64,000 nucleotides of DNA, taken from positions 4,340,001-4,404,000 of the forward strand of contig CM059432.1 of the NCBI GenBank assembly GCA_030390025.1, written 5' to 3'. Origin of the DNA: Squalus acanthias (Eukaryota). This document shows positions 5,176 through 53,869 of this stretch, in pieces. The first letter of the stretch is position 1. The number at the start of each line of letters is the position of its first letter. The notes under the pieces were generated by a model. That model was given only the letters and a program-made list of their open reading frames with translations, had not been told where the DNA came from and did not search any database. The position numbers were made by a program, and so were the translations under genes.

Positions 5176-6150
5176 TAGAATCATAGAATCATAGAATGGT
5201 TACAGCACGGAAGGATGCCATTCGGCCCGTTGAGCCCGTGCCGGCTCTCTGCAAGAGCACTTCAGCTAGTCCCACTCACCCACCCCTTCCCCATAGCCCT
5301 GCAAATTTCTTTCCTTCAGGTACTTATACAACTCCCTTTTGAAAGCCACGATTGAATCTGCCTCCACCACCCTCGCAGGCAGTGCATTCCAGATCCTAAC
5401 CACTCGCTGCGTGAAAAAGTTTTTCCTCATGTCGCCTTTGGTTCTTCTGCCAATCTCCTTAAATCTGTGTCCTCTGGTTCTCGACCCTTCTGCCAATGGG
5501 AACAGTTTCTTTCTATCCACTCTGTCCAGACCCCTCATGAGTTTGAACACCTCTATCAAATCTCCTCCCAACCTTCTCCGTTCTAAGGAGAACAGCTTCT
5601 CCAGTCTATCCACGTAAATGAAGTCCCTCATCCCTGGAATCATTCTTGTAAATCTTTTCTGCACCCTCTCTAAGGCCTTCACATCCTTCCTAAAGTGCGG
5701 TGCCCAGAATTGGACACAATACTCCAGTTGAGGCCGAACCAGTGTTTTATAAAGGTTCATCATAACTTCCTTGCTTTTGTACTCCATGCCTCTATTTATG
5801 AAATTGAGAGGTCGCACAACACCAGGTTATAGTCCAACAGTTCTATTTATGAAGCCCAGGATCCCGTATGCTTTTTTAACCGCTTTCTCAACCTGCCCTG
5901 CCAACTTCAACAATTTGTGCACACATACCCCTAGGTCTCTCTGTTCATGCACCCCCTTTAGAATTGTACCATTTAGTTTATATTTCCTCTCTTAATTCTT
6001 TCTACCAAAATGTATCACTTAGCAATTTTCTGCGTTAAATTTCATCTGCCATGTGTCCGCCCATTCCACCAGGCTGCCTATGTCCTCTTGAAGTCTATCA
6101 CTCTCCTCCTCACTGTTTGCTATACTTCCAAGTCTTGTGTCATCGGCAAT
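5176..6150 (-). mobile_element. CR1 LINE 3' part (RT C-terminal region)
   Basis: ORF 5266-5817 reads LYKTLVRPQLEYCVQFWAPH...NFFTQRVVRIWNALP, followed by a (CATAGAAT)n tail. Confidence 0.92.
5803..5841 (-). mobile_element. 39-bp Penelope terminal micro-insertion
   Basis: Matches the start of the Penelope piece at 9858. Flanked by a 12-bp direct repeat TCTATTTATGAA (5791-5802 and 5842-5853). Confidence 0.7.
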
Positions 6151-7032: not shown

Positions 7033-7057
7033 CAAAATGAGCACCAGTTTCTCTCAT

Positions 7058-7279
7058 ACGATAGCAAAATACTGCGGATGCTGGAAATCCGAAATAACAA
7101 CAGAAAACGCTGGAAAAACTCAGCAGGCCAGGCACCATCCGTGGAGAGAGAAAGAGAGTTAACGTTTCAGGTCGATGACCTTTCTGATGAAAGGTCATCG
7201 ACCTGAAACGTTAACTCTCTTTCTCTCTCCACGGATGCTGCCTGGCCTGCTGAGTTTTTCCAGCGTTTTCTGTTGTTAT
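7058..7279. mobile_element. Palindromic Penelope-derived mini-element
   Basis: 91-bp inverted arms (7094-7184 and 7189-7279, one mismatch) and a 15-bp TSD ACCAGTTTCTCTCAT (7043-7057 and 7280-7294). Confidence 0.85.
7182..7214 (+). ncRNA. Minimal hammerhead ribozyme core with truncated stem I
   Basis: CTGATGA-A-AGGTC atc GACCT-GAAA-CG-TT, with only 2 bp of stem I remaining. Confidence 0.55.
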
Positions 7280-7524
7280 ACCAGTTTCTCTCATCTCCCC
7301 TTGTAAGTAAAGCCTCTGATCTCTGCTATCATCTTAGTAAATCTCTGTCTCTTAGTGACCTCAATGATTCTTCCTAAGTTGGAGATAGGATACAACTGGA
7401 CACAGTTACCCTGATTTTCCGAGCCATTTAAACCTGTTCTGGGATGGGCTGGGCGCAGGAAATGCAACAGGGAGCCAGTCAGCTGGCTTCACATCGTCCA
7501 CCCCTTCCTGGTTTTCCTAGAAAT

Positions 7525-9023: not shown

Positions 9024-9195
9024 ACACTCCGCTGGCCCCTCACACTCCACTGGCCCCTCACACTCCACTGGCCCCTCACACTCCGCTGGCCCCTCACACT
9101 CCACTGGCCCCTCACACTCCGCTGGCCCCTCACACTCCACTGGCCCCTCACACTCCACTGGCCCCTCACACTCCACTGGCCCCTCACACTCCACT
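9024..9195. repeat. 18-bp minisatellite, about 9.5 copies
   Basis: Unit ACACTCC(A/G)CTGGCCCCTC. Confidence 0.95.
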
Positions 9196-9856
9196 AGCCT
9201 GTCACTGCTCATCCATCGAAACCTACAGTCCTCGCAACTACCATACAATCCTGTTGCCCCCCTCACCACCAGCGTGGCGTTTACTGGATTCATTTCATAC
9301 GGTTAATACTCAGCTTTAATCCGAGTAATGAATTATATTATTTTACTAGTTTTATTAGTTAAAGCTAATGGGTGACAAGTATTTGATTTTGTCACCGTTC
9401 CTGAAAATGACACGTTATATGGAGAAATCTCAGGTATCGAGCATTCGGACAGAGGCAGCTTTAGCAACATGGCAAGGCGACTTTTGCTTTGCATCGATAG
9501 TAAGGTGACTGCAAAACCCTGGATTCAGCTTCTGACCTGACTCCAAAGCAGGTTTCCAACTCTGGTTAGACGTATACCTGGAGGTTTCATAAGAACATAA
9601 GAATTAGGAGCAGGAGTCGGCCATTCGGCCCCTCGAGCCTGCTCCGCCATTCAATAAGATCGTGGCCGATCTTCAACCTCAACTCCACTTTCCCGCCCGA
9701 TCTCCATATCCCTTGATTCCCCTAGAGTCCAAAAATCTATCGATCTCAGCCTTGAATATACTCAATGACTCAGCATCCACAGCCCTCTGGGGTAGAGAAT
9801 TCCAAAGATTCACAACCCTCTGAGTGAAGAAATTCCTCCTCATCTCAGTCTTAAAT

Positions 9857-10190
9857 GTGAGAAGTCGCACAACACCAGGTTACAATCCAACAGCTTTATT
9901 TGAAATCACAAGCTTTCAGAGCGCTGCTCCTTCGTCAGGTGAAGTGAAGAGATGCATATAGGCACAGCATATATAGTCAGAGAACACTGCCAGATGATTA
10001 CAGTTAATCTTTCTAACTGCCCTTTATCACACCTCGGCAGAGAGACAATCACGGCAATCAAAGGTGTGGATGGTGTCCAAACAGGTCAGTCAGGAAAACT
10101 TTACATCAAAGACAATGTGGCAGATGCTGGGGTCTGGATGGAAAACAAAAACCTTTTTTTGCTGGAAATCACAGCAGGTCCGGCATCTCC
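9857..10190 (-). mobile_element. Composite Penelope insertion (two different terminal fragments)
   Basis: Family-B end (cacaacaccaggtta...) followed by a family-A-like end (gcagatgctgg...cagcaggtc). Flanked by an imperfect cagtcttaa duplication. Confidence 0.65.
9906..9942 (-). ncRNA. Minimal type I hammerhead ribozyme (Penelope family B)
   Basis: Minus strand reads TCAC-CTGACGA-A-GGAGC agc GCTCT-GAAA-GC-TT-GTGA, with stem I, stem II and palindromic AAGCTT at stem III. Confidence 0.75.
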
Positions 10191-10988
10191 ACATCAGTCT
10201 TAACTGGCTGACCCCTTATCCTGAGACTATGCCCCTTAGTTCGAGACTCTCCAGCCAGGGGGAAACAACCTCTCAGCATCTACCCTGTCAATCCCCCTCA
10301 GAATCTTATACTATTCAATGAGATCAACTCTCATTCTTCTAAACTCCACAGAGTATAGGCCCAATCTACTCAATTTCATCACATGATCTCTCGCCTCTAA
10401 CCGCCTCGCCCGCACATTCCCGCCATTGGTCGCCCGACACGCTCATCGTCGCGGCGACCCGCCTTCCCGCACCAAGTGTCAGGTGACCCCGAGCTGAATT
10501 GCCACTCGATTGGATGATTCATGACCGTCAGTCAAACAACCAACGTTTCCCATCCCCAAAGTTTTAACAACTAATAACTGAAAGCGCTCAAAAGAAAAGG
10601 GAACAATTTTGTTTTAACGTCCCTATGATTGTTCTCCCGGGGTTTTTTTTTGCTCGCAGCCGTGTGCTGGAGATTCATCGTTAATTCCTGGAGACTCCAG
10701 GCCAATCCTGGAGGCTTTGACAACACTACTCTCGAAGGAGGTTGTATAAGAGTCCCCGGAGGAGGCTGTCTCTCACTGCTTGGATTTGATACCACGTGGA
10801 GTGGTGTCTTACATGGTTTAAATAAATCATTGAACGGAATTGCCCGATCTTCCGCCTCACTTTTTAAAATTCATCCAGAGCTTTATTTAAACGGACTGAG
10901 AGTGCAGGTTCCCCCTTGGGTGTAGAGCTCTGTGATAGTGTCTATATATACATGCATGTGCAGCGTTCTTTCCTGACTGGGAGACCAA

Positions 10989-21242: not shown

Positions 21243-22261
21243 GCTCCAATGGCAGGGTTACCACTAAAACATTAACAACCTATCTTTCTCTCGGTGAATT
21301 TTCTGCTTTTGTTTCAGATTTCCAGCCCCTCTCTAAGGCAACTGCCTTCAAGTGTAGGAGCTTTGATTTAGTTCCGCAGGAGACACCCCACCTGAAAACG
21401 ATGCGGGACAAGTGTGAGACTAATGTCAATCTAACAAAATATCAACCTTTTACGGAGGGAGAGATTGGCCACCTTTGACACACTCAGATAAAATGGGTCC
21501 ATGGAGGTTGCCTTCATTTGAATACAATGCACAAACATCTAATTCAGAACTCTCTGTCGAATTAGTGCTCGTAATGAATTAACATGAGTGTTTTGTTTTA
21601 ATTGGATAGACTAAATTATAAAAAATTTCCATCATTATTTGCTACGGTTCGTTGTATTTTAAATTAGCCTCATTTTATGTGAGGGGACTATATTTTTTGT
21701 ACTGCGTTGCGGGAAATGATTGTCGAGCTCACTCAAGCTTCTTTGCTCGATGATGTGACTGGCTGGGGATTATTTTTCCAACGAAATGACGATGGTCCGG
21801 AACTTGCGATCCTGATGGCGGCGAACGGGCAGCGTGCGCCATCATTTCGCGCCCTAACGCGGAAATCCTGAAGCTGTGGTCAGTCATTCACTGCTCTGAC
21901 ACCGGCTGCGCTGTGCCTCCCCCCACACCCCCTCGCCCTCCCTCACCCCCAGAGCCGACAATCATTGTAGTCACTGATCTGCCAAAAACTTCCCCTTTTC
22001 CGAACAAATATCGCTGTTAGAAACCCCATAAAAAGTTTGACCATTTCAAATGAGGTGTAACTGGGTTTTTAACGAGGCTCTGAGTAATAACTACTGATAC
22101 ACAACCGTTCTGGCCTTGAAAAATGAATTTTATATTGGTGGAATGTCAAATTTCTCCATTAAGTTAAAAATTATTAGATTTTTATAATGAATACATTATT
22201 TTTTATTTTATTTTCAAAGTTTGTTCATGATATTTCAGCTTCGACCTTAACCCAATGTGTA

Positions 22262-23418
22262 TTTTTTTTTATTCGTCCCTGGGATGTGGGCATCACTGGC
22301 AAGACCAGCATTTATTGCCCATCCCTAGTTGCCCCTTGAGAAGGTGGTGGTGAGTCACCTTCTTGAACCGCTGCAGTCCGTGTGGTGAAGGTACTCCCAC
22401 AGTGCTGTTAGGGAGAGTGTTCCAGGATTTTGACCCAGCGACGATGAAGGAACGGCGATATATTTCCAAGTCAGGATGGTGTGTGACTTGGAGGGGAACT
22501 TGGAGGTGGTGGTGTTCCCATGCGCCTGCTGCCCTTGTCCTTCTAGGTGGTAGAGGTCGCAGGTTTGGGAGGTGCTGCCGAAGAAGTCTTGGCGAGTTGC
22601 TGCAGTGCATCTTGTAGATGGTACACACTGCAGCCACGGTGCGCCAGTGGTGGAGGGAGTGAATATTTAAGGTGGCGGATGGGGTGCCAATCAAGCGGGC
22701 TGCTTTGTCCTGGATGGTGTCGAACTTCTTGAGTGTTGTTGGATCTGCACTCATCCAGGCCAGGTATTCTGTGGCAAGTGTCTCACCTCCTGACTCCCCA
22801 AAGCCTTTCCACCATCTACAAGGCACAAGTAAGGAGTGTGATGGAATACTCTCCACTCGCCTGGATGAGTGCTGCTCCAACAACACTCAAGAAGCTCGAC
22901 ACCAGCCAGGACAAAGCAGCCCGCTTGATTGGCACCCCATCCACCACCTTAAACATCCACTCCCTCCACCACCGGCGTACCGTGGCTGCAGTGTGTACCA
23001 TCTACAAGATGCACTGCAGCAACTCGCCAAGGCTTCTTCGGCAGCACCTCCCAAACCCACGACCTCTTCCACCAAGAAGGACAAGGGCAGCAGGCGCATG
23101 GGAACACCACCACCTCCAAGTTCCCTTCTGAGTCAAACACCATCCTGACTTGGAAATATATCGCCGATCCTTCATCGTCGCTGGGTCAAAATCCTGGAAC
23201 TCCCTCCCTAACAGCACTGTGGGAGTACCTTCACCACACGGACTGCAGCGGTTCAAGAAGGCGGCTCACCACCACCTTCTCGAGGGGCAATTAGGGATGG
23301 GCAATAAATGCTGGCCTTGCCAGTGACGCCCACATCCCATAAAGGAATTTAAAAAAAAAATCACACTCCTGACTTGTGCCTTATAGATGGTGGAAAGGCT
23401 TTGGGGAGTTAGGAGGTG
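22262..23418. mobile_element. Zenon-like LINE (-) interrupted by a copy of the same family (+, ~22760-23360)
   Basis: ORFs 22293-22886(-) and 22733-23131(+) encode the same peptide. The minus copy resumes at 23361. Confidence 0.88.
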
Positions 23419-25252: not shown

Positions 25253-25970
25253 ATTAAATTTAAAAAAGTAGCGCTGTTGCCATCATATCATTAGAATGTT
25301 CTAACTGAATATGATTATGTGGTATTAATAATAAATCTTTCTGCCTTTGTGCCAGATTCCAAGCGAGCTCTCTGTAAGCGGGTTTTGTCCATTAGTGCTC
25401 CAGCTTTCAGAGGCCTCAGTAATTGACGTGCGCAGCCAGTAATACTCGAAAGCCCAAACGGGAAATTGAACTGCCAACGTAGAAAGCTTAATTTGACATA
25501 ACGTGCGGCCAAAAATTACTCTCTCAGTTTCTGGGACGGCGGTGTGGAGAAAAAAATAAATGCGGAAATAAATGAACTGCTCCCTTATTTAACTGGCCTC
25601 GGCTCCAGTGAGCCTTTCTTCTAATAGGCCCGTTAATAATGGTTGCTGACTGGGCCGTGCGCTGGTAAAGCTGGACACACAAAGCAGAGATCCTTCATCT
25701 CATGACTTCCTGGCAGCTTTAGAAACCAGGTTATAAATGGTTGATGCCTTTGGTGATATTGGCCGTCAATAGGCAGCTTCATGCTAACAGTACATCAATG
25801 CATTTCACTATTCTCCTGGGCTTCGGAGGCAAGAGGAAAACTAATAAATAACACCACACAGCCACACGATTCCTCAGTCCAATAAATCCAATTAGGCGTA
25901 ATAAAAACAGAAAATGCTGGAGATACTCAGCAGGTCAGGCAGCATCTGTGAAGAGAGAAACAGAGTTAAT

Positions 25971-26722
25971 GGGCCAGAAATTCGTCTCTCCGGCTTCCCG
26001 CGGGTGCACGTACTTGCCTACCGCGCCTGCCGTTGTGCTTCGGGCTCGCGTGGAATTCGGATCCTGGGCCTCCTGCAGCTGCCGGAGCGCAGTGCTTGCG
26101 TATCCCAGGGGCGCAGTTAGTTCAAAGCGTCCCCTGGGATCACGTGGGCCATGGAGAGCCAATCGGAGCAGGGAATCTCCATTCATAGATTTGACAGGAA
26201 GACCTGTCAAATCTATGAATAGAGATCGGCCCCAAAATCTCACTAAAACTTCAAGTAAATTTTTTTTTAAAATCACATTTTTAAAATAACTATAACTTAC
26301 ATAAATTAACTACTTTAAACAAAAATTTAAATTTTTGAAAAAATTAATTACACTTTTTAACGGTGCTAAAAATAAACTTACCTTTCTTTAAAGTATGTAA
26401 AAAAGATAAACCTGCTGAAAAAATGTTTAAATTGTACTTAATTCACCACTTACCTTGTTAAAAGCAGGCCTTGCGCCTCCTTTTTCCCCGCGCAGCTTCT
26501 CCGTACTTACCCTCACGGAGAAACCTGAAAAAAAAACAAAGTTCGAGGTCTAGGCGCTGCCTCTCCGGCGCACGCGTTCAACCTCTGAACCCCTTCCTTC
26601 AGGGGAACGGAAGTTCCGGTTTCCAGCGCATGCGCAGTGCATGCACGAAACCGGCACTTTCGTTGGGTCTACGGGTGAGTACCCAGCGCGTACTCACCCG
26701 TGGGGACCCGAATTTCTGGCCC
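25971..26722. mobile_element. Harbinger-type MITE, family C
   Basis: Perfect 14-bp TIR GGGCCAGAAATTCG and perfect TSD AAT. Confidence 0.9.
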
Positions 26723-26752
26723 AATGTTTCAGGTCGATGACCTTTCGACAAA

Positions 26753-26789
26753 AGTTCTGACGAAAGGTCATCGACCTGAAACGTTAACT
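26753..26789 (+). ncRNA. Minimal type I hammerhead ribozyme (Penelope family A), intact core
   Basis: AGTT-CTGACGA-A-AGGTC atc GACCT-GAAA-CG-TT-AACT. Confidence 0.8.
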
Positions 26790-26984
26790 CTGTTTCTCTC
26801 TCTCCTCACAGATGCTGCCTGACCTGCTGAGTATCTCCAGCATTTGCTGTTTTTATTTCAGATTTCCAGCATCTGCAGTATTTTCTTTTTGTAAATCCAA
26901 TCAGTCGTTATGCTACAGCTCAGGAGGTTTCTCAAATTGGGTATCAACTGCCCATTAACTGGGCAACATTTCTGGTTTCCATAT

Positions 26985-39658: not shown

Positions 39659-39965
39659 AAAAGCAAAATACTGCAGATGCTGAAAACCTGGAATAAAAAC
39701 AGAAAATGCTGGAAACACTCAGCAGGTCGGGCAGCATCTGTGGAGAGAGGAACAGAGTTAATGTTTCAGGTCGATGACCCTTCATCAGAACTGCAAGAAG
39801 TTTTTAAGCAGGTGCAGGTGCAGGGGCAGCGAGGAGGGGGGAGGAAAGAACAAAGGGGAAAGGTCTGTGACAGGGTGAAAGTCAGGAGTGATTAAATGAC
39901 AAAAGAGACGATGGTACGAGGCAAAAGGGGCTGACAATTAAAAAAACAAAAGATGGGGCTGGACG
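39659..39965 (-). mobile_element. Penelope 3' region with a hammerhead motif at 39756-39792
   Basis: Homologous to 53049-53400. The minus strand reads AGTT-CTGATGA-A-GGGTC atc GACCT-GAAA-CA-TT-AACT. Confidence 0.8.
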
Positions 39966-53048: not shown

Positions 53049-53660
53049 CAAAAGCAAAATACTGTGGACGCTGGAAATCTGAAATAACAACAGAAAATGC
53101 TGGAGACACTCAGCAGGTCAGGCAGCATCTGTGGAGAGAGAAACAGAGTCAACGTTCCAGGGCGATGACCCTTCGTCAGAACTGGAAAAAGTTAGCGATT
53201 TAACAGGTTTTAAGCAAGTGTAGTAGCAGGGAGAGGGGGGAGGGGAGGAAAGAACAAAAGGGAAGGTCTGTGACAGGGTGGAAGGCAGGAAAGATTAAAT
53301 GACAAAAGGGATGATGGTGCAAAGTGAAAGGGGATGGTAATGGGAAAAGTTAAGAAACAAAAGATGGGTCTGGAGGAGGTGTCAATGGGAATGGCAGAAT
53401 CAACAACAGCTGCTGTCGTCTGGAAAAATGGGGGCAGAGGTTATGGTCTGAAATTGTTGAACTCGATGTTGAGTCCAGAAGGCTGTAAAGTGCCTAATGG
53501 AAAGATGAGGTGCCTTCCTCGAGCTTACGTTGAGCTTCGTTGGAACAGTGTAAGAGGCCGAGGACAGAGAGGTCAGAGTGGGAGTGGGGCGGAGAATTAA
53601 AGTGACAGGCGACAGAAAACTCGGGGTCGCGTTTGCGGACTGAACGGAGGTGCTCAGCAA
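53049..53660 (-). mobile_element. Penelope-like element 3' part with GIY-YIG endonuclease C-terminus (53441-53660)
   Basis: The minus strand translates AEHLRSVRKRDPEFSVACHFNSPPHSHSDLSVLGL...LGTLQPSGLNIEFNNFRP* with one frameshift. The hammerhead at ~53146-53183 has GAAA mutated. Confidence 0.9.
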
Positions 53661-53869
53661 TAACATAATATAGTTAATGGGTATAGCCTGTAGTGTTTCC
53701 AATATGGTTTAAGTATATTATTAACTAATTTAAACAAAACATCACTCACGCAACTGGAAATGACAGGTTAAAAGATTTATTTAACCAAATCAAATTCAGA
53801 TTCTTTCACTTACTATACTTTGGTAATGAAAATCAAATAGTAAATCATTTTATTGTTAGCACAGTGTGA

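Follow-up and report, generated by a model that had tools for sequence, protein, structure and literature searches.

Does a short palindrome that carries a hammerhead ribozyme at its centre represent a self-copying element, or a trace left by the landing of a larger retrotransposon? The question is raised by an insertion at positions 7058-7279 (locus 1) of the 64-kb window, i.e., the whole stretch of DNA analyzed here. Our analysis identifies locus 1 as ordinary retrotransposon debris that follows an old and familiar pattern, "inverted copy plus tail"; it was most likely formed anew at landing, as opposed to being a new self-copying ribozyme element. Self-priming and two-strand priming continue to compete as accounts of how Penelope-like elements (PLEs) integrate, and minimal hairpins can decide between the two once counted genome-wide; a clean TSD, tail and junction make them usable footprints of PLE integration.

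Anatomy and affiliation of the palindromic insertion

Locus 1 is composed of the following features:

7043..7057 (+): left TSD copy, 15 bp, perfect (direct-repeat match)
7058..7093 (-): PLE tail, 36 nt, only on the long arm; its final 5 nt differ from other copies
7094..7184 (-): long (tailed) arm, a pLTR 3' end truncated at hammerhead position G8; strand without the catalytic core
7182..7191: junction, where a 3-nt TTC/GAA microhomology flanks the loop TGAT; this mini-palindrome is natural to the element and covers hammerhead positions 2.2 to 9
7184..7212 (+): minimal type I hammerhead core with a 5-bp helix II, an extra A and a palindromic CG helix III
7185..7279 (+): tail-less (short) arm, which stops at the internal 3' end
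7280..7294 (+): right TSD copy

The first-pass annotation had described an insertion of ~220 bp with 91-bp arms, one mismatch, a 4-nt loop and a 15-bp TSD, and this outline holds in every part. The palindromic arms (7094-7184 and 7189-7279, 91 bp each) differ at a single position (7135/7238) and enclose the loop TGAT; because the left arm extends another 36 nt (7058-7093) that have no partner on the other arm, the insertion measures 222 bp. The TSD is a perfect direct repeat (7043-7057 = 7280-7294) expected by chance with a probability of ~3e-6 over 40x40 offsets. The predicted RNA fold reaches -186 kcal/mol (z -28), and 0 of 200 shuffles were as good. Since the 36-nt unpaired extension leaves one terminus outside the inverted repeats, the insertion does not have the layout of a MITE or DNA transposon. 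A known microRNA precursor was considered and rejected, as the best Rfam score was 41 bits against a gathering score of 95.5. A SINE directed away from locus 1 (recognized by eye, with promoter-box-like motifs) has its tRNA-like head a few bases from the insertion.

BLAST located the same 3' end elsewhere in the window, as single arms at 39.7 kb and 53.1 kb and as a 28-bp scrap (21298-21326) that matches the boundary between short end and tail of the family:

39659..39963 (-): single-arm family copy, cut short by another (GC-rich repeat) insertion
53049..53662 (-): single-arm, 5'-truncated family copy, 614 bp, with a 14-bp TSD

No TSD was found for the former copy in a search up to 40760. The latter contains the C-terminal part of a GIY-YIG endonuclease in a broken frame, a 3' UTR, a decayed hammerhead and a tail; the endonuclease end can be read in two frames on the hammerhead strand. 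This coding strand fixes the sense strand, and the hairpin arms are therefore oriented head to head. A 49-aa endonuclease piece of the 53-kb copy retrieved 78 homologues (best 1e-13, 73% identity), and gave no Pfam match. A word-indexed protein search yielded 0 of 4 candidates. A CxxC-YIG motif is present in 20 of the 78 homologues, and 8 of these 20, the best match included, carry a CX2-5CxxC linker upstream (13 of the 20 have at least 45 residues upstream), counts that come from the homologues alone as the 53-kb copy is truncated short of the linker position. Four of the nine homologues scanned match Pfam GIY-YIG with E values of 6e-4 to 8e-3, below the curated cut-off. One RVT_1 match, in homologue P0003, may reflect a chimeric gene call and was left out of the counts. 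Within the 64-kb window we saw no full-length copy and no RT of the family.

These data support the assignment of the family to endonuclease-bearing (EN+) PLEs as these are characterized in passages of PMC8557442, and by its homologues the family is probably Neptune-like. Locus 1 combines a variable-length TSD, an inverted, 5'-truncated head-to-head pLTR and a tail of 30-40 nt at one end; its pLTR contains a minimal hammerhead motif, and a GIY-YIG domain at the C-terminus, with CCHH, is linked to it through the homologues of the 53-kb copy. The TSDs of four other PLE-type insertions in the window measure 17, 14, 13 and 12 bp. Judged from its sequence features, locus 1 is thus supported as a short pLTR 3' end-piece of an EN+ PLE in head-to-head arrangement. 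The initial identification as a Penelope 3' end with minimal hammerhead, inverted partial pLTR and TSD is thereby corroborated by the 53-kb copy, the ribozyme descriptor (see below) and the direct repeat.

Sections of PMC3846280 describe PLE insertions with an inverted pLTR, an optional 31-bp tail, 8-10-bp TSDs and palindromes at head-to-head junctions, and PMC8557442 places a 30-40-bp tail at one end. Locus 1 resembles the complex EN+ PLE insertions in the parts of both papers that treat them: head-to-head pLTRs, a 30-40-nt tail on one arm, a TSD around the whole unit, a junction palindrome and a GIY-YIG partner. It differs in that there is no ORF between the arms and both are cut at the hammerhead, which leaves a 222-bp hairpin, and TSDs are 15-17 bp here versus 8-10 bp in the rotifer PLE (PMC3846280, in part). 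In a mostly open-access literature, with Repbase and Dfam outside the scope, we found no paper on ORF-less hairpins with hammerhead junctions, although supplements may show such copies; PMC12910113 and PMC8969392 contain nothing on junctions in the parts covered.

Two hairpins and their junctions at the hammerhead

A minimal type I hammerhead descriptor hit three sites in the window (7184, 26757 and 9938, the last in a different family from loci 1 and 2) as compared with 0 in each of 60 simulated windows, while Rfam returned no hammerhead match up to E 1. The motif resembles the minimal type I hammerheads of metazoan PLEs, as presented in portions of PMC4209133, in its core, the extra nucleotide before helix II, the palindromic helix III, the 4-bp helix I of locus 2 (below) and the occurrence of opposite-strand pairs, which in PLEs lie 100-700 bp apart (PMC4209133). 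It departs from them in a helix II of 5 bp with A-U or G-U at 10.1-11.1, versus 7-8 bp with G-C, and, at locus 1, in the loss of helix I and a core on one strand only.

The predicted cut at locus 1 falls after 7212. Its helix I has only 2 bp, the opposite strand lacks a core, and the pairing probability of helix II is ~1e-17 in the full hairpin versus 0.6 in the 39-kb single-arm copy. As helix I is lost and the core buried, the locus 1 ribozyme is probably dead. The junction is located 23-30 nt upstream of the predicted cut site, a position that rules out ribozyme cleavage as its origin; the template would have been uncleaved, as in the in vitro system described in PMC11167929 (sections on the RT reaction).

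In both long copies a pyrimidine tract ending in CAG stands just upstream of hammerhead position 2.2 (53175-53200 and 39785-39805, - strand). The tracts resemble a 3' splice site, and no donor site was seen; in D. virilis, helix I has at its 5' end the terminus of an intron, according to a passage in PMC4209133.

The descriptor site with C3 at 9938 belongs to a copy of a second Penelope-like family (9858-10193, - strand) that has its own minimal hammerhead and a 13-bp TSD with one mismatch. This copy sits in another repeat, and a diverged scrap like the 3' end of the first family occurs near 10100-10185. A ~40-bp stub of the second family at 5803-5841, flanked by a perfect 12-bp TSD (5791-5802, 5842-5853), is an extreme 5' truncation.

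A second hairpin (locus 2) has these parts:

25883..25899 (+): left TSD copy, 17 bp, 2 mismatches
25900..26747 (-): short arm, reaching hammerhead N7 and interrupted at 25971-26722 by a TIR element that came later
26748..26752: central linker, 5 nt, assigned to neither arm
26753..26891 (+): long arm with an intact hammerhead motif, C3 at 26757, 4-bp helix I
26858..26891 (+): tail, 34 nt, part of the long arm
26892..26908 (+): right TSD copy

An independent insertion at 25900-26891 had been noted before as having the same design, and its anatomy agrees: a 17-bp TSD with 2 mismatches (25883-25899 / 26892-26908), a 34-nt tail on one arm only and a unit of ~237 bp, compared with 222 bp at locus 1. 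The short arm also stops, as had been claimed, at the same site as in locus 1, to within 1 nt. What does not carry over is the centre, which differs between the loci, and the locus 2 short arm is in addition interrupted. The interrupting element (752 bp, non-coding, perfect 14-bp TIRs, 3-bp duplication) sits exactly at the hammerhead cut site of the short arm.

Around the start of the hammerhead core the element carries a natural 3-bp stem. At locus 1, G8 is the last position of the tailed arm, and the tail-less arm starts from U4 (from 2.2 if it is given the shared TTC); at locus 2, the tail-less arm stops at N7, the 5-nt linker follows, and the tailed arm begins at 2.4. The core is thus kept by the tail-less arm in locus 1 and by the tailed arm in locus 2. 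An alternative reading of the linker, a junction that was symmetric and then acquired two substitutions, weakens the argument from asymmetry. Templating of the linker from upstream element sequence was rejected (an 8-mer match is present, with a chance of 7%), and an origin as the end of a spliced exon is not supported, since inspection by eye of the upstream sequence displayed showed no clear donor.

The first-pass annotation placed the meeting point of the arms at the hammerhead core, and both junctions do lie at the 5' edge of the core, neither of them at the cleavage site. It further proposed a stereotyped breakpoint. The two loci agree within 10 nt, for which simple null models give a chance of 4-7% (n=2), and such a sample does not establish a family-wide pattern. 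Within the window, the distance from the short end to the arm end is 91-100 nt in the hairpins, compared with 579 and at least 264 nt for the single arms.

Comparing arms by locus versus by side, a check suggested together with these claims, separated the loci: the arms differ by one substitution within locus 1 and by two substitutions and one indel within locus 2, as against 8-10 substitutions between loci. Both loci (2/2, n=2) differ at the centre and their arms cluster by locus, which favours formation at integration over a propagating hairpin family; no shared hairpin lineage of the two was seen. The variants catccgtgg, aaagagag and aaacgctgg, earlier singled out as peculiar to locus 1, are indeed present in both of its arms and in none of the four other arms in the window, and they continue into the unpaired tail. 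With 6 CpGs kept, compared with 2-3 in other copies, these variants in the tail mark locus 1 as a young copy of a distinct subfamily, and both arms may derive from one source subfamily.

Ends of the family in assembled contigs

To the single-arm 53-kb copy we aligned contigs from four runs (two of Squalus acanthias, two of other organisms), 304,853 records in total with 47,566-93,543 contigs per run; runs with only a small share of the sampled words were left out. The figures below come from the 15 of 553 joints, 24 of 3585 loose ends and 40 of 466 other letters listed, and depth bins in this survey cannot rank parts of the element. All four runs show loose-end clusters at two places: the tail end, at 53047-48 with 675-1124 per run, and the short end, at 53089 with 429-622 per run. 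A common variant at 53088 displaces the latter from 53084. The family has two preferred 3' ends, as these clusters support. Among the loose ends listed, a third cluster at 53070 in two of the four runs is probably caused by private mismatches of the reference. In run X9, 285 loose ends fall at the place, 53149, that matches the insertion site of the interrupting element in locus 2, and their low-agreement consensus starts like the TIR of that element, which suggests that this site is a recurrent target.

No strand-switch joint near the hammerhead occurred among the 15 of 553 joints listed. Perfect hairpins tend to break contigs. The 53-kb reference has private mismatches at 53150, 53157 and 53162, i.e., near the hammerhead; together with the partial list of joints, they leave the survey neutral, neither for nor against a clustering of junctions. 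The only opposite-strand joint among those listed connects the tail end to the short end (53047/53084; 9 contigs, three of four runs). Hairpin units arranged in tandem, circles, or insertion of the element into its own 3' end could each give rise to it, and it is the best hint of a propagating family. Pattern scans at the DNA level gave no match in viral contigs or prokaryote genomes, and metagenome scans gave none either, one of the patterns being able to fit neither variant.

Formation of the hairpins and remaining repeats

We favour, with moderate confidence, an explanation in which the palindrome was made de novo during a single integration of a 5'-truncated, Neptune-like EN+ element through the joining of two cDNAs. 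Its observed starting point is the combination of head-to-head pLTR 3' ends, a 15-bp TSD and a one-armed tail. Nicks staggered by 15 bp would prime two antisense cDNAs, one starting from the tail end and the other from the internal site, both on RNA of one source subfamily. Both would stop at the 5' edge of the hammerhead, the TTC/GAA microhomology would serve to join their ends, and fill-in would then complete a hairpin whose integrated form should be inert as a ribozyme. Two-cDNA joining accounts for the TSD, the one-sided tail, near-identical arms and a core on either arm. The model rests on two hairpins, and its in vitro counterpart is a lizard element of the Poseidon clade. In the experiments reported in parts of PMC11167929, the purified PLE protein nicks and extends both target strands; its RT uses RNA that has not been cleaved, starting at two internal positions separated by roughly the length of a tail, and ribozyme cleavage is not needed. 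This Anolis element, PAc, would share with the family here two RT starts one tail apart and ~90-120 nt downstream of helix II, both strands nicked and extended, and uncleaved RNA; PAc belongs to Poseidon, whereas the present family is Neptune-like by its homologues. As an internal RT start is already described for PAc, the shared end of the short arms is not a new feature. Inverted junctions are not treated in the parts of PMC11167929 covered.

L1 twin priming likewise produces an inversion from cDNA primed on both target strands. L1 inversions join non-overlapping parts of one RNA, whereas the arms of locus 1 cover the same segment.

Why both cDNAs would stop at the same edge admits several readings. 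The edge may be the 5' end of a pLTR-initiated RNA, a tentative proposal that we hold on a par with RT stalling at the hammerhead stem-loop combined with local microhomology; chance or ascertainment is a doubtful third. We are also doubtful of the joint proposition that the RNA 5' end is where the junctions lie and that they are a record of integration by two cDNAs, with no re-mobilization. Should junctions prove to cluster at the hammerhead 5' edge, the position of the RNA 5' end or of an RT stop would follow, along with a hint that the ribozyme fold has a role independent of cleavage. The family is large enough (47,566-93,543 contigs per run) to make a genome-wide hairpin count feasible.

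Of the two origins first proposed, a fold-back step during integration or a propagating family, de novo formation at integration is favoured and the propagating family is disfavoured. Fold-back proper, to which we give a modest chance, holds that an antisense strand that ends immediately beyond the core folds back at the TTC/GAA stem of 3 bp and is extended to a full hairpin, with one tail trimmed by the endonuclease at integration. The junction offers just such a ready-made stem with a 4-nt loop, the locus 1 arms are almost identical, and passages of PMC3846280 put forward a self-priming model for head-to-head PLE palindromes. Yet the folding strand at locus 1 would be the tail-less arm, so that a tail on the copy needs extra trimming, and at locus 2 it keeps the tail, so that trimming must act at either end. 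Because the locus 1 loop belongs to the tail-less arm, simple fold-back cannot yield it. Target priming on both strands would also give a more direct account of the 15-bp TSD than a free hairpin does. The related suggestion that one arm was copied from the other is not demonstrated, given the private variants in the unpaired tail and the loop on the tail-less arm; with tail and loop on different arms, two joined cDNAs fit better than copying. Later gene conversion could account for the near-identity of the arms.

It is very improbable, in our judgement, that the entire palindrome behaves as a non-autonomous hairpin retroelement, being transcribed and then re-inserted by Penelope protein acting in trans, perhaps via end-joined tandem or circular forms. 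Such an element would explain two units of similar size in one window and the 53047/53084 joint, which tandem or circular units would give, and it has precedents in the trans mobilization of pLTR sequences (PMC3846280, in part) and in PLE-derived retrozymes (bioRxiv 10.64898/2026.07.22.740005, in part). The differing centres and by-locus arms speak against it, however, as do a locus 1 ribozyme that is buried and without helix I, the absence of a tandem array of the unit among the 10 rows listed, and RT start sites that would be double-stranded in the -186 kcal/mol hairpin. The joint itself amounts to 9 contigs among 304,853 records and is also explained by nested insertion into a pLTR end. Non-LTR retrozymes, in the portions of the preprint that define them, are likewise short, non-coding, PLE pLTR-derived and hammerhead-bearing, but they form head-to-tail tandems with a ribozyme per unit, whereas locus 1 is a single head-to-head unit with a disabled ribozyme: its helix I has 2 bp, the core is unfolded and no head-to-tail array accompanies it. 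Equally remote is the broader notion that a short pLTR-initiated RNA has a fixed boundary at the hammerhead 5' edge and that hairpins derived from it, re-mobilized by Penelope protein through end-joined tandem or circular intermediates, constitute a class of palindromic non-autonomous retroelements.

Least probable of all, we consider, is that the palindrome is an assembly artefact, or that it arose or was homogenized after insertion, whether by gene conversion between the arms or by an inverted duplication during repair. Conversion and mis-assembly readily affect long hairpins, the best runs contain 0.86 of the sampled words and not all of them, and the contigs were aligned to the 53-kb copy and not to locus 1. 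Against this, the unit in its entirety lies within one TSD, the internal end that the family prefers in all four runs is also where the short arm stops, the arms differ at one base, and a second, older locus has the same anatomy.

Further repeats in the window include a large inverted repeat at 22256-23365, with 502-bp arms that are 93% complementary and 92 nt apart and that are unrelated to the Penelope end, and an 18-bp minisatellite at 9024-9199 (9.8 copies, 96% matches).
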